NCBI GenBank assembly: GCA_019428855.1
Contig: JAHYJV010000004.1
Location: 1 to 54,187 of the forward strand
Length of the DNA stretch: 54,187 nt
DNA from: Patescibacteria group bacterium
Lineage (GTDB): Bacteria > Patescibacteriota > Minisyncoccia > JAHIHE01 > JAGLIN01
Direction: 5' to 3'
In this document: one piece after another, positions 120 to 53,774 of the stretch
How the letters are laid out: every line of letters starts with the position of its first letter
Position numbering within the stretch: the stretch's first letter is position 1
The notes under the pieces: generated by a model
Databases searched by the model: none
What the model saw: the letters and a program-made list of their open reading frames with translations, nothing else
What the model was told of the DNA's origin: nothing
Position numbers and translations under genes: made by a program

Positions 120-145
120 GGGTGTGAGTATTAGAATATTTGTAC

Positions 146-971: not shown

Positions 972-990
972 ATAAGCTTTCCTTATTTTC

Positions 991-1122
991 TGTCATTCCG
1001 AAATCAGCGATAGCGAGTGAGGAATCTCTGAACTTTCTAAATTTCACCTAGACTTATATTATTTTCTTTTATAATTTTATCTATAAATTTCTCACCTTCG
1101 TTCCTCAAGTTCGAAATGACAA
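991..1122. repeat. Palindromic TGTCAT-type element (family 1)
   Basis: Termini tgtcattccgaaat ... tcgaaatgacaa are inverted repeats. The interior carries gcgagtgaggaatctc-type motifs. It lies between atpF and atpH. Confidence 0.6.
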
Positions 1123-1159
1123 TTTTTATTGTAAAAAAACATTATAAAATATACTAAAT

Positions 1160-1552: not shown

Positions 1553-1576
1553 TTTTAAAATCATAATTTAAATAAA

Positions 1577-3073: not shown

Positions 3074-3111
3074 AGACAATATGGCAATATAACAATTTAG
3101 CAATTTATCTT

Positions 3112-4008: not shown

Positions 4009-4010
4009 AC

Positions 4011-4216
4011 TTGTCATTCTGAGCTTGACTCAGAATCCTTCGTCTATAACAATAAGTCAATCCCATAAATCACCGAACATTAACATAAAAAGAAAATATA
4101 ACAATTATCTTAAACGAAAAATCAACTGTGTTTGTACTGTAGATGAACGAATGTTGAAAGCTAAACAAACTAAGACATAACATCAAAAAGATTCTGAATT
4201 AAGTTCAGAATGATAA
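4011..4216. repeat. Palindromic TGTCAT-type element (family 1)
   Basis: The left end ttgtcattctgagcttgactcagaatcc and the right end attctgaattaagttcagaatgataa each fold into a hairpin. The outer termini are inverted repeats. Confidence 0.6.
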
Positions 4217-4235
4217 ATATAAATGTACATTAAAA

Positions 4236-4514
4236 TTTGAAAATTGAGTTTTGGAATATATTTCAATAATAATGAAAGATATTGATGAAGCGATCTAAAT
4301 ACGATTATGGTTTAAAAAAAGAAATAAAGAAACTATGGAAATAGTATATAATCAGAAGTTTAAAAATAAAATTTAAAAAAGCAGCGGAAAATCTCGTAAG
4401 AATGAAAGGAGAGGTGAGTTCGAAAAAATTTGGAATAGCTCATCTTCGCTACGAACTAAAACAACTAGAAGAAGGAAGTTAAGACAACTTCCTTTCCAAA
4501 ACTCAATTTTTAAA
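4236..4514. repeat. Inverted-repeat-flanked element, family 2
   Basis: tttgaaaattgagttttggaa (4236-4256) matches the reverse complement of ttccaaaactcaatttttaaa (4494-4514) at 20 of 21 positions. An internal 9-bp hairpin is aaggaagtt/aacttcctt. Confidence 0.6.
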
Positions 4515-4599
4515 TACTATTTTGGAGTTCACCCTCCAGGGTCTAAATCAAGTGCTTGCTTGCAGAATGAAGGGCAGACTCCAGCGATATAAAAAATAA

Positions 4600-6000
<1,401 letters not shown>

Positions 6001-6063
6001 AATCATATCTTACTAACTGACCAATTTAATAAATTTGATTCTTCGAGTATAAAATAAAAGAAT

Positions 6064-6474
6064 ATGAAAATAAACCTACAAGTCATAACTCCCGAAAAAA
6101 TTGCTTTTCAAGGTGAAGCTGATGGTGTTTCGATTCCCACAAAAAGCGGAGAAATTACAGTTTTAGCTAATCACATTCCCATAATCAGCACGATGAAACA
6201 TGGCGAGCTTGTCATTCGTAATGGCAAAGAAGAAATTTATATGGCGGTTTGTAACGGCTTTATCGAAGTGAAAAAGAATTGTGTCATTGTGATGACTGAC
6301 ATTGCAGAAAGAATTGCTGAAATTGATGAAGAAAAAGCGATAGAAGCGAAAGAAAAAGCCAAGAAACTTCTTTTTGAAAAAGACCGTCTTTCCGACCTTG
6401 CTTTTGCTGACACCACGGCTATGCTTGAAAAATCTCTGGCTAGAATCAAGGTTGCCAGAAGAAAGAGGAGATAA
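6064..6474 (+). CDS. atpC: F1 ATP synthase subunit epsilon
   Basis: 136 aa. The N-terminal LQVITPEKIAFQGEADGVSIPTKSGEITVLANHIP beta-sandwich and a C-terminal helical hairpin fit epsilon. It is the last atp gene. Confidence 0.9.
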   Translation: MKINLQVITPEKIAFQGEADGVSIPTKSGEITVLANHIPIISTMKHGELVIRNGKEEIYMAVCNGFIEVKKNCVIVMTDIAERIAEIDEEKAIEAKEKAKKLLFEKDRLSDLAFADTTAMLEKSLARIKVARRKRR

Positions 6475-23109: not shown

Positions 23110-23132
23110 TTAAGGAGGTTCAACCTCCTTAA
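23110..23132 (-). terminator. Hairpin overlapping the uvrC stop codon
   Basis: ttaaggagg-ttcaa-cctccttaa forms a 9-bp stem. The downstream minus-strand sequence is only moderately T-rich. Confidence 0.45.
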
Positions 23133-24346
23133 TTTTTTATACTTCTTAGCTTGCGATGATAAGAAATTGCAAACCGATGTGCTTCATCACGCATTTTTTT
23201 AATGAATTCAATATCGGGGAAAATATATCCTCTTGGGGATGAGGAAAATAATTTCTCCCCTTTTCGATCTGGTCCTTTGGCAATTGCAACTATGGGGATA
23301 TTCAAATTATAATTTTTCAAAACCATACGAGCAACATTTTTCTGTCCCAAGCCCCCATCAACGATGATTAAAGATGGCATCTGCCAATCTTGATGGGTGA
23401 ATCTTCTCTCAAATACTTCCTTGAGCATAGCAACATCATTTGCCCCAGCAACGGACTTTATTTTGAATTTTCGATATTCGTTTTTATCTGGCTTGCCAAG
23501 AGAAAATACCACCATACTTCCCACAGAATGTTCACCACTCATATTAGAAATATCATAAGCCTCCGCTCGAAGGGGAAATTTTTCATACTTATTTTTCAAC
23601 ATTTCATCTTTTCTGATAAACGCCGTGTCTCGAATATGATTCAAGGAAAACAATTGATTTCGTTTAATTGCCGCACTCTCATATTTCATTTCTTTTGAGT
23701 CCTGCTTCATTCCCTGCTCAATTTTCTTGATTATCATTTCTTTCTTTCCTGATAAGAATAATTTTATATTATTGATAATTTTTTGATATTCTTTTTTTGA
23801 AATATCACCAACTTTTCCAGAAGCATAGCCTTTCATATAGTATCTTCGATATAAGTTTGTAGTTTTATTTTCCTGACTACTATCATAATCAAAAATATTT
23901 ACCAAGAGGCCGATAACCTTTTCAGCTTCCCATTTTGAAAGATATGGCCCAAAAATATATTTCGATTTAATTTTCTTTTTATCTGTGGGCCTCGTGATTA
24001 AAACCTTGGGATATTCTTCATTAGTGATAATTATATTCACAAAGGATTTATCATCTTTTAGTTTGATGTTATATTTCGGTGTAAATTTATTGATGAGATT
24101 CGCTTCCAAAATCAAAGCTTCCATAACATTGTCTGTTTCCTTGTAAACAATTTTGTCTATGTCTTTAACAAGGGCAGCAGTCTTATTATCAAGTGCGCCA
24201 GTGAAATATGAACTAACTCTATTTTTCAAGGAAGTTGCCTTGCCGATATAAATAATTTTGTCAGCTTTATCTTTCATTAAATAAACCCCAGGTGAATCTG
24301 GAAATTTTTTAACTTTCTTCTTTGTATCGTTTTGATGATTTTGCAT
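23129..24346 (-). CDS. uvrC: Excinuclease ABC subunit C, compact form lacking the C-terminal (HhH)2 domain
   Basis: 405 aa with GIY-YIG (PGVYLMKDKADKIIYIGKATSLKNRVSSYF), a UVR-like MKYESAAIKRNQLFSL, and YDISNMSGEHSVGSMVVF, IIVDGGLGQ, EAHRFAISYHR. The protein ends right after that last motif. Confidence 0.85.
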   Translation of the reverse strand: MQNHQNDTKKKVKKFPDSPGVYLMKDKADKIIYIGKATSLKNRVSSYFTGALDNKTAALVKDIDKIVYKETDNVMEALILEANLINKFTPKYNIKLKDDKSFVNIIITNEEYPKVLITRPTDKKKIKSKYIFGPYLSKWEAEKVIGLLVNIFDYDSSQENKTTNLYRRYYMKGYASGKVGDISKKEYQKIINNIKLFLSGKKEMIIKKIEQGMKQDSKEMKYESAAIKRNQLFSLNHIRDTAFIRKDEMLKNKYEKFPLRAEAYDISNMSGEHSVGSMVVFSLGKPDKNEYRKFKIKSVAGANDVAMLKEVFERRFTHQDWQMPSLIIVDGGLGQKNVARMVLKNYNLNIPIVAIAKGPDRKGEKLFSSSPRGYIFPDIEFIKKMRDEAHRFAISYHRKLRSIKN

Positions 24347-24514: not shown

Positions 24515-24826
24515 TTATAAATCGCAGCCGACTCCTGCCATTTGAATTGCCTTAGTCGGACATTCTGTTTCGCAAATTCCACAACCCTTGCAATAATCCA
24601 TATCCGCATCTGTCACCCTTATTTTTTCTTTTCCATCAACAATAATTTTTTCTGTCTTAATTGCCATATCAGGACAAAATACTGCGCAACGCATACAGTC
24701 AATACATTTTTGCTTATCACGCACCGGCATTTTTGCTTTCCAGTTTCCCGTCTTAAATTCTTTTGAATTTCCCGCTTCAATTATTTTTCCCCCGATTGGG
24801 ATTTGTTTTGATGTTTTCAATTTCAT
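24515..24826 (-). CDS. porD: 2-oxoacid:ferredoxin oxidoreductase delta subunit (2x[4Fe-4S] ferredoxin-like)
   Basis: 103 aa with CIDCMRCAVFCPD and CKGCGICETECP. It lies immediately downstream of the gamma subunit. Confidence 0.85.
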   Translation of the reverse strand: MKLKTSKQIPIGGKIIEAGNSKEFKTGNWKAKMPVRDKQKCIDCMRCAVFCPDMAIKTEKIIVDGKEKIRVTDADMDYCKGCGICETECPTKAIQMAGVGCDL

Positions 24827-24870
24827 AAATTATTAACTTAAATATTTTATTTTTTATTTTTTTTGAAAAT

Positions 24871-25440
24871 CTATATTTCTATAGTTTCATATCCTTCTTT
24901 CAACGCCTCAATGTTTTTCTCCACCATTTCTGCGGATAATTTTTTCTCAAACTTTTCTTTTGTTTCTTCAATAGCATGTTCATATGGAATCAGAGGAACG
25001 AGCTTTATAATAACTCCCATAATGGCTGTATTTGGTAAATCTCTGCCAATTATTTTCATCGCTATTCCCTTGGCATCAACTGTATAAATTTTACATTTTT
25101 TCTTTTTCAATTTTTTCTTAAGGCTCTCAACTTTTTCACATGTGTTTACAACTACAATTCCGCCATCAGCCAAGCCTTCTATCACATCAACATTCAAAAG
25201 AAGTGAAGGATCCAAGACAACTACCATATCAGGAGTTCTGATGTCGCTATACAAATTAATAGGATTTTTACTCAGTCTCAGAAATGTTTTCATTGGAGCT
25301 CCCGATCTTTCTGGTCCATATTCTGAAAAAGCTTGCGCAAAACACCCTTCCTCAATTGAAGCTTCAGCAATAATTTGCGCCGCCGTTTTAGCACCCTGTC
25401 CGCCACGAGAATGAATTCTGATTTGATATATATTTTCCAT
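24871..25440 (-). CDS. porC: 2-oxoacid:ferredoxin oxidoreductase gamma subunit
   Basis: 189 aa with IRIHSRGGQGAKTAAQIIAEA, typical of the POR/VOR gamma N-terminus. Confidence 0.85.
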   Translation of the reverse strand: MENIYQIRIHSRGGQGAKTAAQIIAEASIEEGCFAQAFSEYGPERSGAPMKTFLRLSKNPINLYSDIRTPDMVVVLDPSLLLNVDVIEGLADGGIVVVNTCEKVESLKKKLKKKKCKIYTVDAKGIAMKIIGRDLPNTAIMGVIIKLVPLIPYEHAIEETKEKFEKKLSAEMVEKNIEALKEGYETIEI

Positions 25441-39058: not shown

Positions 39059-39533
39059 AACAAGATTTTAAAATAAAAAAATATACCTCTAAATTGTCAT
39101 AAATTTATTTTCATTTATAACTATTTAAGCTTATGTATATTATACCACTATATTTAAATGTGACAAAGACCAAACACAAACAAAATACCTGATTCAATAA
39201 TGATTTAAATTATTCAATATTGTGCAAAAAATACCCCAAATAAATATTTGAAGTACTAATTTTAGACTTTATATGTTTATTTTATTTTTTCAAATAATCA
39301 CAATCACCATTCCATTCTTTAAGGTGTACCCCTTGTCAAGACAGTAATATTTGTTGAATTAGGTGGATTTTTAAGTTTAAAAATTAGTAAAACTATACAA
39401 AAACCGACCATGCTCTTGGCGAAAACAACTAGCACCGATTCCTTTTGTATTTTATTTAATGTCATATAATTGTTTTATTGAATTATATTAAAACCATTGA
39501 CTTATTTATCTCAAATTATAAAGTGAATTAAAA

Positions 39534-39591
39534 TTGTCATGGTGAGCTTGTCGAACTATATCGTTGTCCATTCGACAAGCTCAGGATAACA
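39534..39591. repeat. Compact TGTCAT-type palindromic element (family 1)
   Basis: ttgtcatggtGAGCTTGTCGAActatatcgttgtccaTTCGACAAGCTCaggataaca, with a 12-bp perfect stem. Confidence 0.65.
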
Positions 39592-39654
39592 TTATGGATT
39601 AATTTATCATAACAAATAAAGTTAAATTATATTATAACACTGTTTAATTATATA

Positions 39655-39690
39655 TCAAAAAAAATACCCCACTCATAAAGTAAGGGTATT
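39655..39690 (-). terminator. Intrinsic terminator of the Ehr-like operon
   Basis: The minus strand reads aataccc-(14-nt loop)-gggtatt followed by a T8 run, about 20 nt after the stop of the large-subunit gene. Confidence 0.6.
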
Positions 39691-39710
39691 TCAAAAAAAT
39701 ATTCGAATAA

Positions 39711-41276
39711 TTATCTGTCGTAACCAGAATAGGAAAGATTAAAACTTTTGTTGATAAGCGGAAAATCGAGTAGTACACTTCCAACTGCAACATGTGGTAA
39801 GACTGACCAATTCAAAAATGATGCGTCGCGAGCTTGAACTCTGCTAATTTTTCCCTCATTATCTGTAGCGACAAAATAGACAATGCTACCCCGCCATCCT
39901 TCAGCAATTCCGATTGCCAAAGAATTTTTCTTGAAATTTGAAATTGAAGAAGTCTTGATTTCTCCTGCTGGCAATTCATTTAAGGCTTGATATATCAAAC
40001 TAAATGAGGAAGACACTTCTTTGACTCGAACCATAAATCTTGCATAAACATCGCCCTCTTTTTCAATTGCAATTGAAAGATTCAACTTTGAATAAGCGGC
40101 ATAGGAAAAATTGATTCTGGCATCAGATAAGATTCCAAGAGCCTTGGCTGAGACACCGCAAACTCCATGATCTTTGGCAATTTGAGAATCCATAGAACCA
40201 GTCCCCTTCAAGCGATTAATCAGCGAACTACTATCTAAAGCAATATTTATAAACTCTTTAAAATCTTTTTCAATTTCTTTTAGTTTAGAAGTTATTTCCA
40301 TTAAATCTGAAATTTCTTTTTTCACACCACCGATTGTGTTCACGCCTCGCAGAAAACGGCTGTCCGTCAATCGTTGATTAATTTGCATAATCATTTCTCT
40401 CAATCTTGCTCCATTACTTCCACCAAAGCTAAACCCAGCATCAAGCATAATAAAACCGATATCGTTGAAGTGATTTGCAATTCTTTCGAGTTCGGCAAAA
40501 ATAACTCGTAAATATTTCGCTCGAAGAGGAGCGGAAATGTCACCTATCAATTCCAAAGATTGACAAAAAGCGAGTGAATGACCGAAAGAACTATCGCCAG
40601 ATATTCTTTCTGAAAGAGCTATTTTCTTTTCCAAGGGCAGAACTTCAAAAAGTTTTTCGCTTCCCTTGTGAGTATAACCCAAAAGTGGTTCAAGATTTAT
40701 TATTTCTTCTCCAAGCATACTGAAGCGGAAATGACCCGGTTCAATTATTCCAGCATGCACTGGACCGACTGGAACTTCATAAATTCCCTCACCTCCAACC
40801 CTCTTAAATCGATGTGATTTTTCATGAGCCATTTCAATTTTTTTATTCCACGGGAAATCTTTTCTCAAAGGAAAAACATTTGCAGGCCAGTTTTCATGCA
40901 AAAGAACTTTTTCTGGATAATAATGACCAACTATCTGAAGTCCGAACATCGTCATAATTTCTCGCTCATACCAAGAAGTTTCATGAATGACCTTTACGAG
41001 TGATGGAAATTCTTCGGTATTTTGCAATTTGAGATATGGAACCAAAAAGAACTTTTCCCCTGGCAATCCAAAGACATAAAAAATTTTAAAAGAGTTATTT
41101 TCTTTTCTTTCGTCTATGGCTGTCATCGTCATTAGAGTCATCTTGTCTGCAAAATAAAGTTTCTGACAAACAGTTTCAATTTCGCTGACAGACACCTCAA
41201 AAAGAAGAAGATTATTTTTCTCTTCTACGGAACTTTGAGTAGGAATATATTTTTCAATTAATTCTTGTTTATTCAT
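39711..41276 (-). CDS. Fused NuoC-like + NuoD/HycE-like large subunit of a group-4-hydrogenase-related complex, lacking all NiFe cysteines
   Basis: 521 aa. The N-terminal half shows a 30-kDa/NuoC-type fold (WYEREIMTMFG). The large-subunit motifs read ERISGDSSFGHSLAFCQSLE (canonical R-x-C-G-x-C) and, at the C-terminus, NLSYSGYDR* (canonical D-P-C-x-x-C-x-x-R). Confidence 0.88.
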   Translation of the reverse strand: MNKQELIEKYIPTQSSVEEKNNLLLFEVSVSEIETVCQKLYFADKMTLMTMTAIDERKENNSFKIFYVFGLPGEKFFLVPYLKLQNTEEFPSLVKVIHETSWYEREIMTMFGLQIVGHYYPEKVLLHENWPANVFPLRKDFPWNKKIEMAHEKSHRFKRVGGEGIYEVPVGPVHAGIIEPGHFRFSMLGEEIINLEPLLGYTHKGSEKLFEVLPLEKKIALSERISGDSSFGHSLAFCQSLELIGDISAPLRAKYLRVIFAELERIANHFNDIGFIMLDAGFSFGGSNGARLREMIMQINQRLTDSRFLRGVNTIGGVKKEISDLMEITSKLKEIEKDFKEFINIALDSSSLINRLKGTGSMDSQIAKDHGVCGVSAKALGILSDARINFSYAAYSKLNLSIAIEKEGDVYARFMVRVKEVSSSFSLIYQALNELPAGEIKTSSISNFKKNSLAIGIAEGWRGSIVYFVATDNEGKISRVQARDASFLNWSVLPHVAVGSVLLDFPLINKSFNLSYSGYDR

Positions 41277-41285
41277 AATTGAGAT

Positions 41286-42740
41286 TTAAGAAAATAATTT
41301 AACAGAATTCAAAATCAAGGATTGTAAAAATGGCGGAATAACAAATCCGATACAGAAGAGAATAATAACAATCATAATCAAAGGGGAAATAGATAAGCCA
41401 TGTTCTTCCTCATTTATAATCCCAGCAGGAACTTCTCCAAAAAGCATAGTAGAAATATGTTTCATAAAACCTACAAAAGCAATTGCCAAACCAATAATTG
41501 CGAATGTCACAATAATAGGATGAGCTGAGATTCCGGCAGAGAGAATATAAAACTCAGTCAGAAATATTCCAAAAGGAGGCATGCCGATTATCGATAATAT
41601 TCCAGCAATAAACAGAATGCTTGTGATTGGTAAAGCAGTTAGAGTTCCTCTGACATCTGCAATTTTGGTTGAATTATATTTCAAAAATATATTTCCAGCA
41701 GAAAGAAAAAGAAGTGATTTAGTAAGAGCATGATATACCATATGAAGTAGTGCCGCATAAATTCCGATTCCACCAAATCCAAAGCCTAAAGTGATAAGAC
41801 CCATGTGTTCGATACTGGAATAGGCCAAAAGCCGCTTATAGTTTTGTGACACCGAAATCATAAACCCAGCGAAAAGAATTGAAATCATACCAAAAAATAA
41901 CATCAGGTTTTGTGTAAATTGCGGATCTATGGAAGTGTCTATCACAATTTTAAAACGCAAAATTGAATAAAGAGCGACATTTAAAAGCACACCAGATAAT
42001 AAACTACTAATTGGAACTGGTGCCTTGGAATGAGCATCAGGAAGCCAGGTATGCATGGGCACCAAGCCCATCTTTGTGCCATAACCAACTAAAAGGAAAA
42101 CGAAAGCAATCTTGATAACCGCAGGATTAAGACTAGAAGATAGTAATAGAATATCCTGCCATGTCACGAATCCCCCAATTGTCTCGTGAAGAGAAATTGA
42201 AGCTAAAAATATTAGCGTTCCCAAGAATGCCAATAGCAACCCAACTGAATTTATAACTAAATATTTCCAAGCTGCCTCAATTGAAGTTTTCTTGCTATAA
42301 AAACTAATTAAAAAAGCTGTTGAAAGAGTTGTTGCTTCAACTGCAACCCACATTAAAATTGGACTGGCAACCTGCACGGCGAATAGCATCGTAAAAAGAA
42401 AAGAGTGCAATAAAATATGATATTGTCGAACGCGACTAAAACCGATAGTCCCATTCTTAACCTCCGCACGCAAATATCCGATAGAATACACTGAAGCTGT
42501 AAAGCCAACGATTGCTATAATTAAAAGTAATATTGCTCCCAAGGAATCAACAAAAAAATATGGTGCCAATGAAGATGAGCCGTTCTCAAGAACAGTATAT
42601 ATTATTTTTGCCACCGTAAAAAATTCAATTACTGTCGCCAATAAAATAATATATTCCAAAAAGACTTGCTGTTTTCGTTTCACGAAAAAAGACGAAATTG
42701 CTGCTATAGCTGGAGTGAGAATAAGAATTAGTATTTCCAT
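41286..42740 (-). CDS. HyfF/NuoN/MrpD-like antiporter-type membrane subunit
   Basis: 484 aa, about 14 TM helices, with HTWLPDAHSKAPVPISSLLSGVLLNVALY. Confidence 0.88.
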   Translation of the reverse strand: MEILILILTPAIAAISSFFVKRKQQVFLEYIILLATVIEFFTVAKIIYTVLENGSSSLAPYFFVDSLGAILLLIIAIVGFTASVYSIGYLRAEVKNGTIGFSRVRQYHILLHSFLFTMLFAVQVASPILMWVAVEATTLSTAFLISFYSKKTSIEAAWKYLVINSVGLLLAFLGTLIFLASISLHETIGGFVTWQDILLLSSSLNPAVIKIAFVFLLVGYGTKMGLVPMHTWLPDAHSKAPVPISSLLSGVLLNVALYSILRFKIVIDTSIDPQFTQNLMLFFGMISILFAGFMISVSQNYKRLLAYSSIEHMGLITLGFGFGGIGIYAALLHMVYHALTKSLLFLSAGNIFLKYNSTKIADVRGTLTALPITSILFIAGILSIIGMPPFGIFLTEFYILSAGISAHPIIVTFAIIGLAIAFVGFMKHISTMLFGEVPAGIINEEEHGLSISPLIMIVIILFCIGFVIPPFLQSLILNSVKLFS

Positions 42741-42760
42741 ATTTTTTTAATCTTTAATCT

Positions 42761-43417
42761 TTAATCTTGCAATTTTTTTATTTCAGAAATGTTAAGAGAG
42801 CCAAAATTTTTATAAACCATTGAGATAAACACTACCGCAATCACAATCCAAACAGAAATATCAAAAAGAATACCAAGCTCGAGAACCAAAGTCTGTTTAA
42901 TTTCAATCAAAAAGGCAAAAGAGATAATACTATTTTCAAGATAAAGTATACCAATAATTTGAGAAAGCGCTCCGCGTCGATTGATTATCAAAAAAATTGA
43001 AGATAAAATACTTGCTATGGCAAACGGAATGGTCTTGTCCACTTTTTCTGACAGAGAAATGAGAACCTCAAAAACAGATGAATTGGCAAAAATCACAATA
43101 AACATCACAACGAAGAGAGTGACAGGAGTAGAAAGATATGAACTTGCTGATGATTTTACTTGATTATTATTAATCAGCTTCAAAAAGAAACGAGGTGCGA
43201 TAATGACTTTTACCAAAAACATAATGATGGCCGTTACAAGAAGAGTAATTGAAGATTCGGAATAGGAAATTAAAATCAGCATCAAAAAAACCACCGTAGA
43301 TTGAAGAAGATAGAACAAAACAAGATTCTTGTTTTTCTTTACCATCTGCGAAAAAACAACAATCAAGAATATGATAATTTCGGCAAAAAATAGAAATTGT
43401 AGAATTGAATAATCCAT
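42761..43417 (-). CDS. HyfE-like small membrane subunit
   Basis: 218 aa, about 7 TM helices. Size and position match HyfE of hydrogenase-4-type operons. Confidence 0.7.
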   Translation of the reverse strand: MDYSILQFLFFAEIIIFLIVVFSQMVKKNKNLVLFYLLQSTVVFLMLILISYSESSITLLVTAIIMFLVKVIIAPRFFLKLINNNQVKSSASSYLSTPVTLFVVMFIVIFANSSVFEVLISLSEKVDKTIPFAIASILSSIFLIINRRGALSQIIGILYLENSIISFAFLIEIKQTLVLELGILFDISVWIVIAVVFISMVYKNFGSLNISEIKKLQD

Positions 43418-43426
43418 ATATCTTAT

Positions 43427-44356
43427 TTAAATTACGGTTATTATAATGGCAATCATCCCCAAAACAAGTGAGGTCAAAAGCAAATCTGGAAGTCGAAAAA
43501 ATCTCAATTTCGCAATGGTTGATTCAAGGACAGCGATGCTTACTGCCATGACTAATATTTTTATCAAAAATAAAATCAAAGCAATCGCAACTGGCACGAT
43601 TTCAACATTTTGAGCAATTCCCCAAGGGAAAAATATACTTGTTCCTAAAGAAATAAAGATCAGAAGCTTGTTAGCCGCTGCCCACTCAACGAGTGCCAAT
43701 CTTTTTCCGGAATATTCCAAAATCATTGCTTCATGAATCATAGTCAGTTCAAGATGAGTAGCAGGATTATCAAATGGATATCGAGCACATTCCGCCAAAA
43801 GAGCAATATAAAAAGCAATAAATGCGATTACAACTGGTGCCAACATAGAGAATGGAACAACGGAAATAGCGTTGACCATTTCAGAAATATTGGCAGTTTT
43901 GGCAAGTAAAGCAACTGAGAACAACGAAAATATTAATCCACCTTCAGTCAAAGCAGCCACAGTCATTTCTCGGCTTGATCCCGTTCCCCCAAAAACACTT
44001 CCTGTATCCAAGCCAGCCAAGGCCAAGAAAAAAGTTCCAAGAGCAATCAAATAAACAAAGAGTAAGAAATCGCCCAAAGGAGAAAAAGTTGCCATGGTGC
44101 TGATCATCGGGATACCAGCTGAAATGACAATTGTGACGGCAAACAAAAGATATGGTGTGTAGCGAAAAATCCAAGAAGCAGTTTCAGAAATTACTTCATC
44201 CTTATGGAACAATTTCCAAAGATCACGATATGGCTGAAAAATACTCGCTCCTTGACGATTCTGAAATCGCGCTTTTATTTTTCTGATAATACCAACAATT
44301 AAAGGAGAAAGTCCCGGAATTAAAAGTGCTTGAAATATAAATAGTATGATTGACAT
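43427..44356 (-). CDS. HycD/HyfC/NuoH-like membrane subunit
   Basis: 309 aa, polytopic, with RKIKARFQNRQGASIFQPYRDLWKLF (typical NuoH/HycD N-terminal loop) and ECARYPFDNPATHLEL. Confidence 0.85.
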   Translation of the reverse strand: MSIILFIFQALLIPGLSPLIVGIIRKIKARFQNRQGASIFQPYRDLWKLFHKDEVISETASWIFRYTPYLLFAVTIVISAGIPMISTMATFSPLGDFLLFVYLIALGTFFLALAGLDTGSVFGGTGSSREMTVAALTEGGLIFSLFSVALLAKTANISEMVNAISVVPFSMLAPVVIAFIAFYIALLAECARYPFDNPATHLELTMIHEAMILEYSGKRLALVEWAAANKLLIFISLGTSIFFPWGIAQNVEIVPVAIALILFLIKILVMAVSIAVLESTIAKLRFFRLPDLLLTSLVLGMIAIIITVI

Positions 44357-44360
44357 TTTT

Positions 44361-46397
44361 TTATCGAGTTACCAAAATAAGTAAAATCACAATTGTGATA
44401 AGGATATATAAAAGATAAAAATTAACAATACCACATTGAATCCTCCTTAAGAAATTTGCAATTTTATATACAAAATTACTAATAGGACAATATAAATATT
44501 TGTTATATAGGTCATTCATTCTTAAACTAACAGTACTAGATTTGGTAAAATATTTTATATTTGAATCGTCATATTCTCTGTTAATTTGTTTAGTAGGTTT
44601 CAAAATTCCACTAAAAATCATTACGATTGACCTTGAAAAACTGGTTGCTGTAATTTCCATTCGTGGGGTTAGATTCCCTCCACAATCCCAAGTTGAATAA
44701 ATTTTTTCTTTCTGTCTTCGACTAATCCAATTAAAGAAAATAAATGAGAATACAAAAGTAAGAAGCAATGCTATTAAAACTGGAATTATTGCCAGAGAAG
44801 AAGAATTATTCTGTGTATGGAAAGTTATTCCTTCAACCAATACAAGCGAAATACCAGCAAAAATACTCAGACTTCCAGCAAGAGATTCCAAATATGGGAT
44901 TACGAAAATAGAAAATACTCCCAAGGCAAGACATGCCAAGGAAAGAACAGCCATTGGTAAACGAAGTAAAAGTGATGATTCTTTGGCATTTTCACTTTTT
45001 TGACTTCGCGGTTTTGCCAAAAAAGTAATTCCAAAGGCCTTCACGAAACAAGCAGCAGCAAGCCCACCTGTCAAAGCAAGAGATGCAATGCCAAAAATAA
45101 AAACACCTTTTGTAAAAATATCAAACTGCATCACTCCTAAAAAAAGAGCTTGAAAAGTCAGCCACTCGCTTACAAATCCATTAAAAGGAGGAAGAGCTGA
45201 AATTGAAATAGCACCTACTAGGAAAAATAAAGCTGTCTGAGGCATTATTTTTATCAATCCTCCGTATTCTTCAATATTTCTTGTACGAGTTGCGAGCACA
45301 ACTGAACCTGCCCCCAAGAAAAGGAGAGACTTGAAAATGGCATGATTCATCGTATGAAATAAAGCAGCGACCAAAGCTAGTAATGCGAGTGATTTCAAAT
45401 CAAAAGACAAAAATACCAAAGAACTACCAACGCCTAACAGAATTATACCGATATTTTCAACGCTGTGATAAGCAAGTAATTTTTTAATATCATGCTCACT
45501 AATGGCATAAAGAACTCCAAGAAGAGAAGAAATAGCACCGACAATAATAATCAACAATCCAAACCATAGAGGTGTAATTGGAATAACATCAAAGAATAAT
45601 CTTATCAGCATCAAAATTCCTGTTTTAATCATCACTCCAGACATAATCGCTGAAACTTGAGATGGTGCTGCTGGGTGAGCCTTCGGAAGCCAAATATGCA
45701 AAGGAATGATTCCAGCCTTAGTTCCAAATCCTGCTAACATCAGTAAAGATACAATCGAAATCCAAAAAGATGGCAAGCTTGAAACATTTTCGCGAATTAC
45801 ATCAAAATCAAAAGATCCTAAAAAGCTATACAAAATTAAAAAAGCTAACAGTATTCCACCTGTAGCAATATGTGTCATAATAAAATATAAAAATCCAGCC
45901 TTGATACTCTCCTTATGTTTATGTTCAAAAATCACGAGAAAATATGAAGTCAAGGACATAATTTCCCAAACAAAAAGGAAATATAAAGCATTGTTCGCCG
46001 ATGCGACCAAAATCATGCTCAAAATAAAAAAATTATAAAAAAACCCGAATAAACCGAGATTGTATTCTTTATAAAATTGTCTCATATAACCAATTGCATA
46101 AATACTGCTCAAAAGAGAAACTACGGAAATTATCAAAATAAAAAAAGCAGAAAGCATATCGATTTTCACATTGACTGGCAATAGTGAAAAAGTTAAGGGC
46201 AATTGCAAAGTATAAATATTATTATATAGCAAAACATTTCCGGATAATAAAATTCCAAATAATGAGCCAAGAGCAGCACAGGAATTTGCCCACCAGTTTG
46301 CCATATTATTATTTCGCCGAAAAAGAAGTGAGCCAATTGAACCCAGGACGAAAATTCCAGCTAAAATAAAAAATTCTTTTTGTAGTAATAGACCCAT
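44361..46397 (-). CDS. HyfB/HycC/NuoL-like antiporter-type membrane subunit
   Basis: 678 aa with HIWLPKAHPAAPSQVSAIMSGVMIKTG. Confidence 0.88.
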   Translation of the reverse strand: MGLLLQKEFFILAGIFVLGSIGSLLFRRNNNMANWWANSCAALGSLFGILLSGNVLLYNNIYTLQLPLTFSLLPVNVKIDMLSAFFILIISVVSLLSSIYAIGYMRQFYKEYNLGLFGFFYNFFILSMILVASANNALYFLFVWEIMSLTSYFLVIFEHKHKESIKAGFLYFIMTHIATGGILLAFLILYSFLGSFDFDVIRENVSSLPSFWISIVSLLMLAGFGTKAGIIPLHIWLPKAHPAAPSQVSAIMSGVMIKTGILMLIRLFFDVIPITPLWFGLLIIIVGAISSLLGVLYAISEHDIKKLLAYHSVENIGIILLGVGSSLVFLSFDLKSLALLALVAALFHTMNHAIFKSLLFLGAGSVVLATRTRNIEEYGGLIKIMPQTALFFLVGAISISALPPFNGFVSEWLTFQALFLGVMQFDIFTKGVFIFGIASLALTGGLAAACFVKAFGITFLAKPRSQKSENAKESSLLLRLPMAVLSLACLALGVFSIFVIPYLESLAGSLSIFAGISLVLVEGITFHTQNNSSSLAIIPVLIALLLTFVFSFIFFNWISRRQKEKIYSTWDCGGNLTPRMEITATSFSRSIVMIFSGILKPTKQINREYDDSNIKYFTKSSTVSLRMNDLYNKYLYCPISNFVYKIANFLRRIQCGIVNFYLLYILITIVILLILVTR

Positions 46398-46403
46398 AGA
46401 TTT

Positions 46404-46940
46404 TTATTTCTTTTCAGACTCCCTCTCTAGCGATTTTAAAATTTCCAGTAATGCGCACAACACTCTTTTGGGAGATGGGGGGTCTCCAGGAATTTGAAAA
46501 TCAACTGGAATTACTTTTTCTACTCCGTCCATAACCGCATATGATCCTTTGAAAATTCCGCCATCAATCGCATCGTCCCCTACTGCCACTACAAATTTGG
46601 GCTCAGGCGTGGCTTCATATGTCTTCCGAAGAGCAACTGCCATATTTCGAGAAACAGGTCCCGTTACCAAAAGCATATCTGCATGTCTAGGTGAAGCAAC
46701 AAAATGAATTCCAAATCGTTCGACATCATAGAAAGAATTCCCAAGCGCTGTCAGCTCCTGTTCGCAAGCATTAGAAGAGCCGGCATCAACTTCTCGAATA
46801 GCAAGAGAACCACGAAACAATTTCTTTATTTTTTCGCTCAATTCCTTACTGATAAGCTTGATATCCTTTTCCTTATACAAATCTTCCGGCATAATCAATG
46901 TCTTCGGATTAGAAAAAGTTTTTATATAAAGACTTGGCAT
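46404..46940 (-). CDS. NuoB/HycG-like small subunit lacking three of the four [4Fe-4S] cysteine ligands
   Basis: 178 aa with ERFGIHFVASPRHADMLLVTGPV. The ligand motifs read DAGSSNACE (canonical GSCNGC), VGDDAIDGG (canonical G-x-C-A-x-x-G-G) and IPGDPPSP (canonical PGCPP). Confidence 0.88.
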   Translation of the reverse strand: MPSLYIKTFSNPKTLIMPEDLYKEKDIKLISKELSEKIKKLFRGSLAIREVDAGSSNACEQELTALGNSFYDVERFGIHFVASPRHADMLLVTGPVSRNMAVALRKTYEATPEPKFVVAVGDDAIDGGIFKGSYAVMDGVEKVIPVDFQIPGDPPSPKRVLCALLEILKSLERESEKK

Positions 46941-47136: not shown

Positions 47137-47406
47137 TCAATAGCATGTATTAGTCCAACACATTCTGGACAATAAATTATTATTAATCATATAATCCACG
47201 GGGGATTGCAAGCCCAAGTTCTCAACTACTATTTTTGTTTCTCCCTCTAAATCCCATGCAAAAGGAAAATCTCCATTAAACGCTTCAAGAAACAGAGGCC
47301 CATTTTTGTAAAAATTCAAGGAAACTTCTTCCCCTTCAACCAAGCCCTTAACCTCAGTTTCACTATTATATAAATAAACTAGGCTATAGACCATCAGAAA
47401 CTTCAT
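47137..47406 (-). CDS. Hypothetical protein
   Basis: 89-aa ORF with no recognisable family. The coding call rests on length and context only. Confidence 0.4.
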   Translation of the reverse strand: MKFLMVYSLVYLYNSETEVKGLVEGEEVSLNFYKNGPLFLEAFNGDFPFAWDLEGETKIVVENLGLQSPVDYMINNNLLSRMCWTNTCY

Positions 47407-47563: not shown

Positions 47564-49621
47564 CTATCCCGCTCCTCCTCCGCCACCACCTGCTCCACCA
47601 CCCGCTCCTCCGCCACCACCAGAAGCACCACTGGCGCCAGAACTGGAAATTGCGCTGTAAAATGAAGATGCAAAGCTAGCACTGAAAGCGGAAGAAGAAA
47701 ATGCGGAAGAATAAAATGAAGATGCCATATTTGTGGCTCCGACATACCAAGACGGCCGAGGAACATTCATCGATTCAAACGCCTTTGCCCATTTTTTCTC
47801 TACTCCAAAAATCATAGCATAAGGCAAATATTTCTCAAAATATTCTGGTTTTAAATTCTGCATCCTGTATTTTTCCGCCGTTTCCAAATACATCTTAAAT
47901 CCCAGCCAGTCTTCTTTGAGTTTTATTCCTTTGTCAGACAAGCGAGCTTCGTATTTGATGAAAGCGTAGAGAAATCCAATACTTACAATTCCTGTTGTTA
48001 TTAAAAAAAGTAATTGACTTATTCCAAAATTTAATCCTATAAGCATGTAAATAATATAAAATGGAAAGAAAAATATTTTCCAAAGTTTTGTTTTCTTTTT
48101 TTCTATTGTTAATCCAGTTTCAAAAGCTTTCGTGTCTAATTCAACTTCTTTATATATTTTATCTTTAATTTTTAATATTTTTTCATATAACACTCTTGCA
48201 TTTACTCTATCTTTCTTTAATTCTTCTGTAGAAAAATATTCTTTATTGTCAAAAAGCACATCTAAATATTTTCTTTCATAATCTTCAAGATTAGAAGCAC
48301 TTTCATATAGTTTGGCTTTTTTTATAATATAATTAACATATCTCTTTTCGGTTCTTTTAAGTGATATTAATAAAGTAAAAAGCATTAATAATACGGGTAA
48401 AATTAAAGAAAGAAAAAAGAAGATTTCTTTATATAAAGATAGGAACAATAAAAGTAAAAATAAAATTATAGCAAAAGGCAATATTAAAAAAAATAATATG
48501 AATGTCTTTATTAAATGACGCTCTCTGACTTTAGAGTTCAATTCAGGAACTTCCTCAATTCTCACATACCCCCTCACCGCCAGATCAACAATCGTCGCCG
48601 TTAAACCTTTATTTGTTAATCTTTCCTTTATAATAACTTCCGCCATGGCGGGCTTCAGATTTTGAGGCGGTTCATATTGCGGAACAATCGCACGCTTTCC
48701 TTCTCTTGATCTTTCCGTTTTATACCAATGGTAAAATCCATAAATAACCGCGCTGATAAATATCAAAATTGATAAAATATAGCCGTAATACATAAAAAGA
48801 AAATCTTTGAAATACGAGCCTTGACTGACAATGCCTTTTGGAAATCCTACGGCAACCGTAAAGTTTGTATTCGGCCTTATATTCCTTCCCCAAAATATTG
48901 CTTCGGTATTATCTTGATTAAAGTAATATCCGCCAGAAGATATCGGGTTAAATTCCGCTCCGTAAGAAAGAGGCAGTGCCTCGTTCCTACCGTCATTTAT
49001 ATCCCAATCGTCCATCCTCTCAGATAAGGGGAGGATAGGTGTGGTTTGAAAAATCGGGCTGGGAATATCCTCCGCATAAAGCCAAATCAGATCTTTATTA
49101 AATTTCTCTCCATTTTCCAAGCTTATTGTAACTTTCACATTCTGAATCGCGACATCCCTGACACTTGGTATTGCATTCCAATAAATTTCATCATAGTTTT
49201 TCAAAAAACTTATTCCACCATGAACTTTATATTTCACCGTCCAGCTTTTTTCTTCCTGATCAAAGTCCCGCCTCGCGAAATTCCACTGAATATACTTTGC
49301 ACCGTTTTTTAAATTTATAAACAGTTGGATTTTGGGGATTTTATTATTATCCCCGTCAAAAACTTCAATGTCCGTGATAGCATCTATCTTATTTAAAGAA
49401 ACATTGCGATTTACAAAACCAAAATTGCCATCAAAAAAATAAGTCTGTTTTTCTGTGACATCAAAAGTTGAGTCTTGGTTTATTTTTATATCAACTTCAA
49501 AATCTTTGTAATAATATTCTTTGGCGAAGGAAGTTTTGACATTAAAACAAAAAATAAAAACTATACTTACTACAAATAATAATTTATATATTTTCATATT
49601 TTTATTTATAAAATATTTCAT
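47564..49621 (-). CDS. DUF2207-like membrane protein with a Gly/Ser/Ala-rich C-terminal tail
   Basis: 685 aa with a signal peptide, a large extracytoplasmic domain, several TM helices and a tail ...SSGASGASGGGGGAGGGAGGGGGGAG. This architecture is typical of DUF2207. Confidence 0.75.
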   Translation of the reverse strand: MKYFINKNMKIYKLLFVVSIVFIFCFNVKTSFAKEYYYKDFEVDIKINQDSTFDVTEKQTYFFDGNFGFVNRNVSLNKIDAITDIEVFDGDNNKIPKIQLFINLKNGAKYIQWNFARRDFDQEEKSWTVKYKVHGGISFLKNYDEIYWNAIPSVRDVAIQNVKVTISLENGEKFNKDLIWLYAEDIPSPIFQTTPILPLSERMDDWDINDGRNEALPLSYGAEFNPISSGGYYFNQDNTEAIFWGRNIRPNTNFTVAVGFPKGIVSQGSYFKDFLFMYYGYILSILIFISAVIYGFYHWYKTERSREGKRAIVPQYEPPQNLKPAMAEVIIKERLTNKGLTATIVDLAVRGYVRIEEVPELNSKVRERHLIKTFILFFLILPFAIILFLLLLFLSLYKEIFFFLSLILPVLLMLFTLLISLKRTEKRYVNYIIKKAKLYESASNLEDYERKYLDVLFDNKEYFSTEELKKDRVNARVLYEKILKIKDKIYKEVELDTKAFETGLTIEKKKTKLWKIFFFPFYIIYMLIGLNFGISQLLFLITTGIVSIGFLYAFIKYEARLSDKGIKLKEDWLGFKMYLETAEKYRMQNLKPEYFEKYLPYAMIFGVEKKWAKAFESMNVPRPSWYVGATNMASSFYSSAFSSSAFSASFASSFYSAISSSGASGASGGGGGAGGGAGGGGGGAG

Positions 49622-51652: not shown

Positions 51653-51787
51653 TTATAGAAACATTACTATGGATTATTTTTATATTTTATCACAATTTAA
51701 TCAAAATAACCAATTTTGCAAAATTTAAAATTGTGCTATAATATTCTTATATTAACAAATCTTACGATAAATATCCAAATAAAAATC

Positions 51788-52762
51788 ATGAATGATAAAC
51801 AACTGCGAGGCTTCGTTTCATATCTTATCAAAAATAAACATACCGTATTTTCTCATACAGACGAAGAAGGGAAAATCAAGATAAAAAAAATAGATACTGG
51901 AAAAGATTTTACGCTTTGTCCTAAAAGACCTCTGTATTCTTTCAAAAAATTCTTTCTTCCACCCTGCCAAAAAATGATGGTTTTAAGCGATGACGAGACA
52001 ACCTTAAACAGAAATCCAAATGAAAAAATAGTTCTACTTGGGCTTCATTTTTATGATCTCAAAGCATTTACACTTATTAATCAAGTATATAGGAAGGATC
52101 CTCATTTTCAGAAAAAATTGAGAAATGCGATTGTTATCGGTCAAAGTCCAATTCCAGCTGAGCTTGAAGATTACCAAAAATTTGAAAAAGAAGTTCTCGA
52201 ACATCTCAAATTTGATATTTTTCTGGAAGCAAAATCTCACGGAAAGCAAGAATCATTCCGAATTTTTACAGGTTCAGAAGATGGACAAAGACTTTTGGAT
52301 GATTTTGGATATAGAGATTATGAAAATATTGAATATGTCGGCCCTGTTCCCAAAAAAGGTCTGGGACCAATTAATTCCATGCTAATTGAAAAAATCAAAA
52401 AATCTTGTGGTTCAAAAATTTGGAAAGAATTAGGGGAAAAATGTACTGATTGTGGAAAATGCACAATTGTTTGTCCGACTTGTTTTTGTTTTAAAATCAA
52501 GGATGAAATTAAAAAAGACGAAATCCTACGCTCTCGCGAATGGGACAGTTGTTTTTATGAGGAATTTTCCGAAATTTCAGGAGGACATAAATTTCTTGAT
52601 ACAACTGAGAAGAGAATTTATAATTATTACGACCATAAGTTTGTCAGAATACCAGAGGAATATGGAATGCCTGGGTGTATTTCGTGTGGAAGATGTACAG
52701 AGGTTTGCCCAGCAGGAATTGACATTAGAGCAGTTATAAAAAGGATTATCAAAGAGAATTAA
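51788..52762 (+). CDS. Iron-sulfur subunit, HydB (group-3b hydrogenase beta)/AsrA-like
   Basis: CTDCGKCTIVCPTCFC and CISCGRCTEVCPAGI are present. Start placed at ATG 51788 (MNDKQLRGF...), because the track's TTG 51716 extension is a low-complexity leader. Confidence 0.78.
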   Translation: MNDKQLRGFVSYLIKNKHTVFSHTDEEGKIKIKKIDTGKDFTLCPKRPLYSFKKFFLPPCQKMMVLSDDETTLNRNPNEKIVLLGLHFYDLKAFTLINQVYRKDPHFQKKLRNAIVIGQSPIPAELEDYQKFEKEVLEHLKFDIFLEAKSHGKQESFRIFTGSEDGQRLLDDFGYRDYENIEYVGPVPKKGLGPINSMLIEKIKKSCGSKIWKELGEKCTDCGKCTIVCPTCFCFKIKDEIKKDEILRSREWDSCFYEEFSEISGGHKFLDTTEKRIYNYYDHKFVRIPEEYGMPGCISCGRCTEVCPAGIDIRAVIKRIIKEN

Positions 52763-52952
52763 TTCGAGCAAATAACTGGAGTTCAGTTTTTAACCTGTAA
52801 AAAACTATTTTCTTACAATCGATTTACAATCTAAAAAGTGAACTCCGAAATAAGATAATTTAGTATAACAATGGCGATGTTAATCCTCTTGCAAGATTAC
52901 CACTAATAACATCTGTCTTAATATTGCCAATATTAATATCATAAAAATCTGC

Positions 52953-53774
52953 ATGAAAAATCAATACGAACCAATTCAAACCGAGATTGTGAAAATTGAA
53001 GAACTTTCACCTATTAATAAGCTTTTTACACTAAGAATTAAAAACGAGCAGACTCAAAATGCATTCAAGTTTCGACATGGACAATTTTTTATTCTTTCCG
53101 TTCCAGGGTTTGGCGAAGCTCCTTTTGGTTTTTGCTCAAGCCCGACAATCAAAGAAACTTTTCAAGTGTCCGTGGACAAGAGAGGAAGTCTGACTACAAA
53201 GCTTTTTGAGTTCAAAGTGGGAGCTGATATTGGAATCAGAGGTCCTTATGGTAATGGCTTTGATCGGAAAAAAATCAAAAACAGAAATCTCGTTCTCGTA
53301 GCTGGTGGATGCGGACTCTCCCCTCTGAGAACAATTATCCAAGATGCCAATCTTCATCCTGAAAATTTTCAAAATATTCAAATTTTTTATGGTTGTCGGA
53401 ATTCAGAACTCTTGGCATTCAAAAAAGATTATACTGATTGGAGTAAAAATATCGAAATAAATCTGACAGTCGATACACCAGACAAAAAATGGAAAAACAA
53501 TGTTGGCGTGGTCACAAATTTACTAACTCTAGAAAAAATCAAATCTGATTCCGTGGCAATTCTAGTCGGTCCGCCAATAATGTATAAGTTCGTCATTCAA
53601 AAACTGGTTGAACTTGGCTTGAGTGATGAGGACATCTATGTTTCACTGGAACGAAGAATGCATTGTGGGATTGGAATCTGTCAACATTGTGCCCTTGTCG
53701 GCGGAAAATATGTTTGCACCGATGGTCCCCTATTTTCCTATGCTGAGATTAAAGATACTCCTGAAGGGATTTAG
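52953..53774 (+). CDS. FAD/NAD(P)-binding [2Fe-2S] subunit, HydG (group-3b gamma)/AsrB/PyrK-like
   Basis: 273 aa with RHGQFFILSVPGFGEAPF, LVAGGCGLSPL and a C-terminal MHCGIGICQHCALVGGKYVCTDGP cluster motif. Confidence 0.82.
   Translation: MKNQYEPIQTEIVKIEELSPINKLFTLRIKNEQTQNAFKFRHGQFFILSVPGFGEAPFGFCSSPTIKETFQVSVDKRGSLTTKLFEFKVGADIGIRGPYGNGFDRKKIKNRNLVLVAGGCGLSPLRTIIQDANLHPENFQNIQIFYGCRNSELLAFKKDYTDWSKNIEINLTVDTPDKKWKNNVGVVTNLLTLEKIKSDSVAILVGPPIMYKFVIQKLVELGLSDEDIYVSLERRMHCGIGICQHCALVGGKYVCTDGPLFSYAEIKDTPEGI

Follow-up and report, generated by a model that had tools for sequence, protein, structure and literature searches.

The window analysed here, meaning the whole stretch of 54,187 nucleotides, comprises positions 1 to 54,187 of contig JAHYJV010000004.1 (assembly GCA_019428855.1) from a Patescibacteria group bacterium. 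The system in question is a six-gene operon on its minus strand (39711-46940), whose products resemble subunits of group 4 [NiFe] hydrogenases and of complex I. The genes are tightly packed and encode, in order of transcription, a NuoB-like small subunit, a HyfB-like subunit, a NuoH-like subunit, a HyfE-like subunit, a HyfF-like subunit and, last, a NuoCD-like large subunit. A preliminary description of the interval 39711-41276 had dealt with the large-subunit gene and its missing NiFe ligands. The unusual features of the complex lie outside that interval, namely in the small subunit, which has lost cluster ligands of its own, and in the linkage of related operons to the genes of the F1Fo ATP synthase.

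The large subunit and its family

The large-subunit gene (39711-41276) is an open reading frame (ORF) on the minus strand only, the plus-strand translation of the same interval being riddled with stops. It encodes a 521-amino-acid NuoC-NuoD fusion, homologous to HyfG and HycE, with an N-terminal PF00329 domain (Complex1_30kDa) followed by PF00346 (Complex1_49kDa, E=2.5e-40). Among solved structures its best sequence match by phmmer is HycE of Escherichia coli (7z0s_E, E=1.5e-67), with which it shares the same NuoC-like N-terminal domain. An AlphaFold2 model (pLDDT 88, pTM 0.90) loses confidence nowhere but in residues 160-200, the beta1-beta2 loop, and in the final ~12 residues, and Foldseek retrieves HycE 7z0s_E first (TM 0.90) and E. 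coli NuoCD next (TM 0.86). The model and the PF00346 match thus predict the fold common to NuoD and the NiFe large subunits, in agreement with the earlier supposition that this fold had been kept.

The former ligand positions were assigned by phmmer against HycE 7z0s_E and by MAFFT with HycE, HyfG and NuoCD of E. coli K-12, and the two agree on the columns. In both, the large-subunit segment SERISGDSSFGHS sits over HycE SDRVCGICGFAHS, and 'NLSYSGYDR*' sits over HycE 'DPCYSCTDR', beyond which HycE continues for 32 more residues. HycE C241, C244, C531 and C534 correspond to S226, S229, S515 and G518, and the final residue, R521, corresponds to R537, the C-terminus of mature HycE. The former L1 motif (40578-40607, minus strand; residues R224-H233) reads 'RISGDSSFGH' against 'RVCGICGFAH' in HycE; the R-x-C-G-x-C-x-x-x-H motif of group 4 [NiFe] hydrogenases is absent from it, both cysteines being serine, and D228 is newly fixed. 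The former L2 motif and C-terminus (39714-39740, minus strand; residues N513-R521, stop codon 39711-39713) lacks the corresponding D-P-C-x-x-C-x-x-H/R, its cysteines having given way to Ser515 and Gly518. The preliminary description had made out the same four substitutions (Ser, Ser, Ser, Gly) and a stop directly after D-R, and the alignments bear out both; the interval 40587-40607, cited there with no strand, covers codons 224-230 of the minus strand.

Related operons were collected by alignment-based scans of species-representative genomes and metagenomes, which gave 160 loci (labelled L with a number below), annotated by phmmer searches that started from the subunits of the window and of E. 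coli. Across 119 homologues (56-70% identity), S226, G227, D228, H233, S515, Y516, G518 and D520 never vary, and the replacement of the NiFe cysteines is due neither to chance nor to sequencing error. A tail beyond D-R is found in none of the 82 aligned locus sequences. Eight sister sequences from Firmicutes (L019, L051, L053, L065, L068, L069, L070 and L073) likewise end at D-R, and these carry all four NiFe cysteines ('RICGAC...', 'ELCY[SA]C.DR'). The absent C-terminal extension is therefore not diagnostic of NiFe loss, and was inherited from a subgroup that includes cysteine-bearing sequences, themselves presumably true hydrogenases. The Firmicutes sisters (among them Thermincola, Desulfosporosinus, Sporomusa and Ectobacillus) have a four-cysteine small subunit, mostly lack a HycF-type gene, and look like a Hyf-like hydrogenase type for which endopeptidase maturation would be unnecessary. 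HycE and HyfG, by comparison, have the NiFe site, the 32-residue C-terminal extension and the protease HycI, and no member of the HycI or Hyp families was found among the ~47 window ORFs scanned. Judged from these motif alignments, the large subunit is without canonical NiFe ligands and without a C-terminal peptide that needs cleavage, as the preliminary description had concluded.

Several residues were considered as replacement metal ligands and set aside. Cys238 (in 'AFCQ') is nearly invariant and lies nine residues along the helix; since it is also present in the cysteine-bearing sisters L019, L051 and L068, it is older than the NiFe loss. H233, E179 and D520 are ordinary hydrogenase residues.

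A large subunit of this kind invites comparison with NuoD, which the preliminary description had named as a parallel in proposing that there is no NiFe site and that the fold serves another purpose. The ligand loss and the fold stand; the parallel does not. NuoCD of complex I likewise lacks cysteine at the four positions, terminates in D-R and carries a fused NuoC, the architecture of complex I also includes antiporter-like subunits, and the structural match to NuoCD is close. Unlike in complex I, the quinone ligands are absent: in the phmmer alignment with 2fug_4 and the MAFFT alignment with NuoCD, the His of the beta1-beta2 loop is replaced by Ile178 and the Tyr at the former L1 position by Gly227, the two ligands being H38 and Y87 in Thermus thermophilus Nqo4. 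Nor is there a counterpart here of cluster N2 of NuoB, of the two-cluster subunit NuoI or of the NADH module, and both sequence and fold are nearer to HycE than to NuoCD. Quinone biosynthesis, moreover, is generally missing from those genomes of the Candidate Phyla Radiation (CPR) that the literature has examined, as noted for soil CPR (PMC8407418). A NuoD-like site that reduces quinone or some other lipophilic acceptor is contradicted by the alignment, and we give it almost no weight.

The family to which the large subunit belongs is already described. Ehr complexes (short for energy-converting hydrogenase-related) are related to group 4 hydrogenases, lack the CxxC motifs and are of unknown function (PMC6349859, PMC10284858), and a monophyletic clade of CPR sequences inside Ehr, also without the metal-binding cysteines, was reported by Jaffe et al. 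in 2020 (BMC Biol 18:69, PMC7304191), who wrote that these proteins 'likely cannot interact with H2'. This monophyletic, CPR-dominated clade is the clade of the window's large subunit, and the loss of its cysteines is thus a published observation, here correctly rediscovered. Among the top 120 large-subunit homologues, at 56-70% identity, all named matches are CPR/Patescibacteria (Paceibacterota, Levybacteria, Uhrbacteria, Wildermuthbacteria, Magasanikbacteria and Howlettbacteria). The signature 'SGD[ST]S..H' plus 'NKSFNLSY[SA]G.D[LRM]', with no tail, is common to the CPR-dominated loci (49-61% identity) and recurs in Ehr of ~40% identity from Nitrospira, Rokubacteria, Acidobacteria, Verrucomicrobia, Thaumarchaeota, Methanoperedens and some Firmicutes. 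A group-4-related large subunit without the CxxC NiFe motifs is thus encoded together with NuoB-like, NuoH-like and antiporter-like genes, and the same set recurs in the ~160 related loci. By the sequence features that define each family, the protein is neither a [NiFe] hydrogenase nor a NuoD, and it is an Ehr protein.

In a neighbour-joining tree of 164 large subunits (100 bootstraps; distance-based trees only), the main clade is recovered in 100/100 replicates and nests among Ehr sequences. A divergent Patescibacteria clade (L066, L078, L154), also at 100/100, joins the main clade in 60/100. All small subunits that lack the cluster fall inside these two clades, and no four-cysteine small subunit does. 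Five cluster-less members (L005, L011, L012, L014, L015) lie on contigs from metagenome-assembled genomes (MAGs) labelled Firestonebacteria, Fibrobacteria, Thermoleophilia, Endomicrobiales and Bdellovibrionales; these are either mis-binned CPR or lateral transfers out of CPR, and their GC content of 34-57% fits either. Tandem Ehr-type operons occur on one contig in L011, L049, L119, L152 and L158 (for example in Nitrospirota and in a Fibrobacteria-labelled MAG), with large subunits of different signatures, such as 'SGTSS' and 'SGDTT' in L049.

The small subunit and the membrane subunits

The small-subunit gene (46404-46940, minus strand) encodes a 178-amino-acid homologue of NuoB, HycG and HyfI (PF01058) in which three of the four [4Fe-4S] cysteines are gone. 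Alignments by phmmer to HycG, MbhJ and NDUFS7 give the same ligand columns: HycG C48, C51, C115 and C145 correspond to S56, C59, D123 and D153, and the HycG motifs CxxC, GxC and GCPP have as their counterparts 'GSSNACEQE', 'GDDAIDGG' and 'PGDPP'. In the 120 closest database small subunits the four positions hold T or S, C (115) or E (5), D (120) and D (120), and in all 21 clade loci with a small subunit they hold S/T, C/E/A/T, D/G/E and D/N/S; by contrast, of 123 complete small subunits from outside the clade, 120 read CCCC. The single leftover cysteine becomes Ala, Thr or Glu in other clade members, and the alignment contains no further conserved cysteine in the clade small subunits. The partner subunit with a four-cysteine proximal [4Fe-4S] cluster that characterizes a group 4 hydrogenase, present in HycG and HyfI, is thus missing. 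The replacements are non-random, with Asp fixed at two positions and additional Asp residues acquired in the loop, and the small subunit is the operon's most conserved protein (59-76% identity against clade loci), with the NuoH-like subunit at 53-66% and the large subunit at 49-61% behind it. Its AlphaFold2 model is poor (pLDDT 52, pTM 0.51). The database gene call for this protein (P0121, 162 amino acids) begins at Met17 (46893-46940, minus strand); homologues of 174-181 amino acids align over 98-100% of the 178-amino-acid ORF, which supports the upstream ATG at 46940.

Because the clade and non-clade small subunits differ in this way in their cluster cysteines, the complex is filed as an Ehr variant, set apart among the Ehr examined by the sequence signs of cluster loss in its small subunit and by its linkage to atp genes. 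Like other Ehr it has the 'SGD[ST]S..H' plus 'NKSFNLSY[SA]G.D' signature and no C-terminal tail in the large subunit, six subunit types, NuoH-like channel residues and, as is usual among them, no NuoI/HycF gene. Unlike the CPR-dominated clade, other Ehr keep all four small-subunit cysteines (120 CCCC sequences) and are not linked to ATP synthase genes; in most of them the small-subunit gene is last, whereas here, as in the Rokubacteria-type Ehr, it is first. The main text of Jaffe et al. (PMC7304191), at least in its passages on Ehr, is confined to the large subunit and mentions neither the ligand loss in the small subunit nor the missing ferredoxin-like subunit, the membrane residues or the atp link. 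In the open-access literature searched, no relevant CPR paper on the small subunit or on a link between the complex and ATP synthase was found.

The four membrane subunits between the two cap genes are complete in the residues that matter for ion passage. The HyfB-like antiporter-type subunit (44361-46397, minus strand; 678 amino acids; NCBIfam 'hydrogenase 4 subunit B', 657 bits) has E145, K227, K258, H348, H352, K356 and E411 conserved. The HyfF-like antiporter-type subunit (41286-42740, minus strand; 484 amino acids; PF00361; NCBIfam 'hydrogenase 4 subunit F') has E135, K223, H333, H337, K341 and E396, which align to key residues of NuoL/M/N and are conserved in the clade. Both thus retain counterparts of the Glu of transmembrane helix 5 (TM5), the Lys of TM7, the Lys/His of TM8 and the Glu/Lys of TM12 of NuoL/M/N. 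The NuoH/HyfC/HycD-like subunit (43427-44356, minus strand; 309 amino acids; PF00146) retains the full acidic and basic residue set of HycD/HyfC, with E130, E138, E189, D196, E203, E209, E214, R129 and R285 identical to the cysteine-bearing sisters. The small HyfE-like membrane subunit (42761-43417, minus strand; 218 amino acids; NCBIfam 'hydrogenase 4 membrane subunit'; PF00420) is NuoK-like in its C-terminal half; the equivalent of NuoK Glu36 and the second acidic residue are kept. From the alignments, every charged residue known for ion passage in the antiporter-like and NuoH-like subunits is retained. A His in the NuoH-like subunit in place of HycD Glu201 was considered as a clade-specific change and dismissed, being common to all Ehr and to the cysteine-bearing sisters. 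In some long-read-derived contigs operon genes are split into short ORFs (L086, 4898-6946; L168, 6950-7880; the whole of L170), affecting the HyfB-like and NuoH-like genes and in L170 also atp genes; these look like assembly frameshifts rather than pseudogenes.

The six genes together match HyfB, HyfC, HyfE, HyfF, HyfG and HyfI of the E. coli Hyf and Hyd-3 (PDB 7Z0S) systems, while HyfA, HyfH/HycF, HyfD and FdhF have no counterpart in the operon: no ferredoxin subunit of the NuoI/HycF/HyfH type, no HyfA and no formate dehydrogenase is encoded in it. Between the large-subunit stop codon and pgk there is no ORF of at least 50 amino acids, and hence no gene of the NuoI/HycF type follows the large subunit.

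With catalytic ligands gone from both cap subunits, the large subunit or the whole cap might be taken for a decaying hydrogenase relic on a complex in which the membrane subunits alone matter. This is contradicted by selection. The large-subunit dN/dS is 0.13 at dS 0.10 and 0.16 at dS 0.20 in two orthologue pairs, taken from closer database sequences, no clade pair among the species-representative loci having exceeded 70% identity. The gene is under purifying selection and is not a dead gene; the preliminary description had proposed such a comparison of orthologues, and no relaxation of selection emerged from it. In addition, 84 columns are invariant across the 119 large-subunit homologues, every clade locus has an intact ORF, no product of the operon is more conserved than the small subunit, and the operon is kept in the very small genomes of many CPR lineages. 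We consider a relic very improbable.

A more substantial alternative is that remodelling has turned the old NiFe and FeS sites into a non-redox active site or ion-binding site coupled to translocation. The site would be a carboxylate-rich pocket, formed by D122, D123, D126 and D153 of the small subunit with D228, E179 and H233 of the large subunit. Its ligand might be a substrate, a cation or some other metal, and binding or catalysis there would be tied to ion movement; the model for this is the hydration of CO2 by DabAB or NDH-1 (CupA). The fixation of Asp at two former cysteine positions in all 120 small subunits, the interchange of Cys and Glu at a third, the invariance of D228 and the strong conservation of the cap, highest in the small subunit, are what such a site would show, and precedents for non-redox chemistry on complex-I-type modules have been described (PMC6981117, PMC12435202). 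Against this, no known catalytic motif or extra domain was found with Pfam and NCBIfam, D228 and the first Asp of the 'GD' pair also occur in Ehr that retain the FeS cluster, in some clade members the former ligand positions hold Gly, Asn or Ser, and no substrate-related gene is among the conserved neighbours. We hold a rebuilt site to be unlikely, if far from negligible.

The ATP synthase genes and other neighbours

Across the clade, the sole recurrent neighbours of the operon are ATP synthase genes. Among the 24 clade loci with usable flanks (the upstream flank often only ~4 kb), the operon abuts or sits inside an F1Fo ATP synthase operon in ten, as against one of 90 other Ehr or hydrogenase loci, and that one weak (33 bits); the Fisher p-value of 3e-7 is only indicative, because the loci are related and not phylogenetically independent. 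The single non-clade case, an 'atpD' next to L033, probably encodes some other P-loop ATPase. In seven loci (L004, L016, L078, L095, L154, L169, L170) the operon comes immediately after atpC, in L096 it precedes atpF, and in L007 it has atp genes on both sides. In L009, a Saccharibacteria MAG (CAYHUB010000003.1, 17-13380), it is inserted between atpG and atpD, with gaps of ~20 nt, into an atp operon that is whole in all else, and the order on one strand is atpB-E-F-H-A-G, the small-subunit, HyfB-like, NuoH-like, HyfE-like, HyfF-like and large-subunit genes, and atpD-C.

The window carries its own F1Fo ATP synthase genes at 1-6474 on the plus strand (Pfam; the end of c, then b, delta, alpha, gamma, beta and epsilon). 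A gap of ~620 bp separates gamma (ending at 4008) from beta (starting at 4627), which is the junction at which the insertion in L009 lies. Na+-binding c rings have Ser or Thr after the carboxylate. The C-terminus of the window's c subunit, AFAEAIAIYALVVALIIKFV, has Ala there, the motif being 'AFAEAIAIY' in the window and 'AFVEALGIF' in L009; since neither has Ser or Thr after the carboxylate, the sequences suggest that the c subunits are H+-coupled.

The operon's surroundings in the window include genes of a fermentative metabolism, encoding GAPDH, PGK, enolase, iPGM, a PfkB kinase, a PTAC-type phosphotransacylase and acetate kinase. At 24515-25440 (minus strand) lie genes for POR gamma and a delta-type 2x[4Fe-4S] ferredoxin, with no adjacent POR alpha or beta; a DUF389 membrane protein is encoded upstream of the pair and, downstream, at 23129-24346, a short UvrC-like protein (405 amino acids, GIY-YIG plus UvrC RNase H domain). 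Two genes at 51716-53774 (plus strand) resemble those of a group 3b [NiFe] hydrogenase: one encodes a Fer4_22 protein like its beta subunit, the other, with FAD/NAD-binding and DHODB Fe-S domains, a protein like its gamma subunit. The delta and alpha genes would fall past the window end at 54187. L171, a syntenic locus at 63% identity, is arranged alike and has a complete four-gene 3b hydrogenase divergent from the operon. From this synteny the genome probably carries a true NiFe hydrogenase besides the cofactor-less complex, and, because the organism makes FeS proteins and probably such a hydrogenase, the ligand loss would be specific to the Ehr-like complex.

These redox genes bear on a further possibility, that the complex is a redox-driven pump with an unrecognised cofactor or with a partner encoded elsewhere, such as the POR ferredoxin or the 3b hydrogenase. 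Published hypotheses on Ehr presume a redox partner, as in FDH-Ehr (formate dehydrogenase-Ehr; PMC6349859), the window has both the POR gamma/delta pair and the 3b beta/gamma genes, and in L171 the full 3b hydrogenase divergently adjoins the operon. Neither cap subunit, however, has a cluster-binding cysteine set and no subunit of the NuoI, HyfH or HyfA type is present, so that no electron path leads from the surface to the former active site; the quinone His and Tyr ligands are absent as well. The 3b hydrogenase is, furthermore, not recurrent beside clade operons, where the atp genes alone recur. On these grounds a redox-driven pump appears decidedly unlikely.

A second primary ion pump is encoded in the same 54 kb, a P-type cation-transporting ATPase of 898 amino acids (13533-16229, minus strand) with E1-E2 ATPase and N- and C-terminal cation ATPase domains. 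Directly upstream of the operon are a DUF2207 membrane protein whose long C-terminal tail is rich in Gly, Ser and Ala (47564-49621, minus strand) and an 89-amino-acid ORF without a family match (47137-47406, minus strand), neither of which is a conserved neighbour in other clade loci. At the other end, a terminator-like hairpin with a T-run (39667-39685, minus strand) directly follows the large-subunit stop codon and marks where the operon ends. It lies in a spacer of 652 bp between the large subunit and pgk (39059-39710), unusually long for this compact genome, which also contains a perfect 12-bp inverted repeat (GAGCTTGTCGAA / TTCGACAAGCTC, 39544-39555 and 39571-39582) inside a 35-nt imperfect one, and two strong promoter-like sites on the minus strand (39658-39631 and 39166-39139). 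Rfam and tRNA scans of the whole window and of the 652-bp spacer returned nothing at gathering thresholds.

A proposed translocator without redox chemistry

Given a cap without canonical cofactor ligands, the lack of an electron-input gene, membrane subunits whose ion-path residues are complete, purifying selection and the genomic tie to the ATP synthase, we lean, at slightly better than an even judgement, towards reading the complex as a redox-independent, complex-I-like ion translocator that works in the same ion circuit as the ATPase. No redox chemistry would be left in such a complex, and its activity would be secondary ion translocation, most likely a cation/proton exchange by analogy with Mrp antiporters; a close variant would be a gated proton path for the control of pH or proton motive force. 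The circuit would be shared with an H+-type F1Fo ATPase which, in a fermenter, energises the membrane by ATP hydrolysis. Protons exported in this way would re-enter through the antiporter-like subunits, and the cation would exit through the NuoH/HyfE path. The NuoB/NuoCD cap might then act as a lid, a gate or the cytoplasmic ion-loading end of a NuoH-type channel, a role that would agree with how conserved the cap is and with the acidic residues now fixed in it.

The comparison with Mrp antiporters, which like the proposed translocator would need no redox chemistry, is meant only as a working analogy. The PF00361 subunits have the same set of Glu, Lys and His residues, including the TM5 Glu, TM7 Lys and TM12 Lys/Glu of the MrpA/MrpD type, and Mrp-like modules figure as evolutionary partners of membrane-bound hydrogenases (PMC8165549). 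In contrast to Mrp, which has no NuoB-, NuoD- or NuoH-like subunits, the operon includes two cap genes, and in the Pfam and NCBIfam searches, in which dedicated Mrp profiles were not run, the six genes include no counterpart of MrpB, MrpE, MrpF or MrpG. The complex stands outside the Mrp family.

Several points weigh against a redox-independent translocator coupled to the ATPase. Canonical Mrp antiporters function without NuoB-, NuoD- or NuoH-like subunits and have the MrpE, MrpF and MrpG that are absent here, and a passive cap has no obvious need for 60-76% conservation. The lack of cysteine ligands is no proof that metal is absent, and the Asp-rich sites and the Cys/Glu interchange could bind another metal. 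The genomic link, besides the kinship of the loci that tempers the Fisher test, is incomplete: 14 of the 24 clade loci have no atp gene within the flank, and in the window itself the atp genes are 33 kb from the operon, whose immediate neighbours are glycolysis genes and the group 3b hydrogenase. The ion specificity of the c subunits is read from a single motif. Finally, to our knowledge no Ehr complex has been studied by experiment.

A stronger form of the proposal would make the CPR-dominated clade the first member of the complex I/group 4 superfamily without any redox cofactor, in which the NiFe and FeS sites have become a carboxylate-rich ion-loading or sensing site and the complex forms a functional unit with the F1Fo ATPase, co-transcribed with it and possibly physically associated. 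Taken as a whole this is tentative and rather improbable.

The large-subunit finding alone, being already published, is of minor weight, and it is the fuller complex that matters. Ehr are widespread in Nitrospira, Acidobacteria, Thaumarchaeota and others, and their function has been open since 2013; a clade that lacks the last FeS cluster, is strongly selected and has its ion apparatus intact speaks for a core activity of the scaffold that can do without redox chemistry. A cofactor-free junction of Q-module and membrane arm would be a useful object of comparison for the mechanism of complex I and, should the stronger form of the proposal hold, would offer a 'redox-deleted' complex I made by nature, on which to work out how the antiporter modules are driven by the Q-module. 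CPR/Patescibacteria have no respiratory chains, and little is understood of how their membranes are energised and regulated. An operon that time and again is joined to the atp operon or set within it makes a strong candidate for the partner so far missing for the CPR ATPase, and, again on the stronger form of the proposal, the unit of the two would be the main route by which these respiration-less, ultra-small bacteria set and convert ion gradients.

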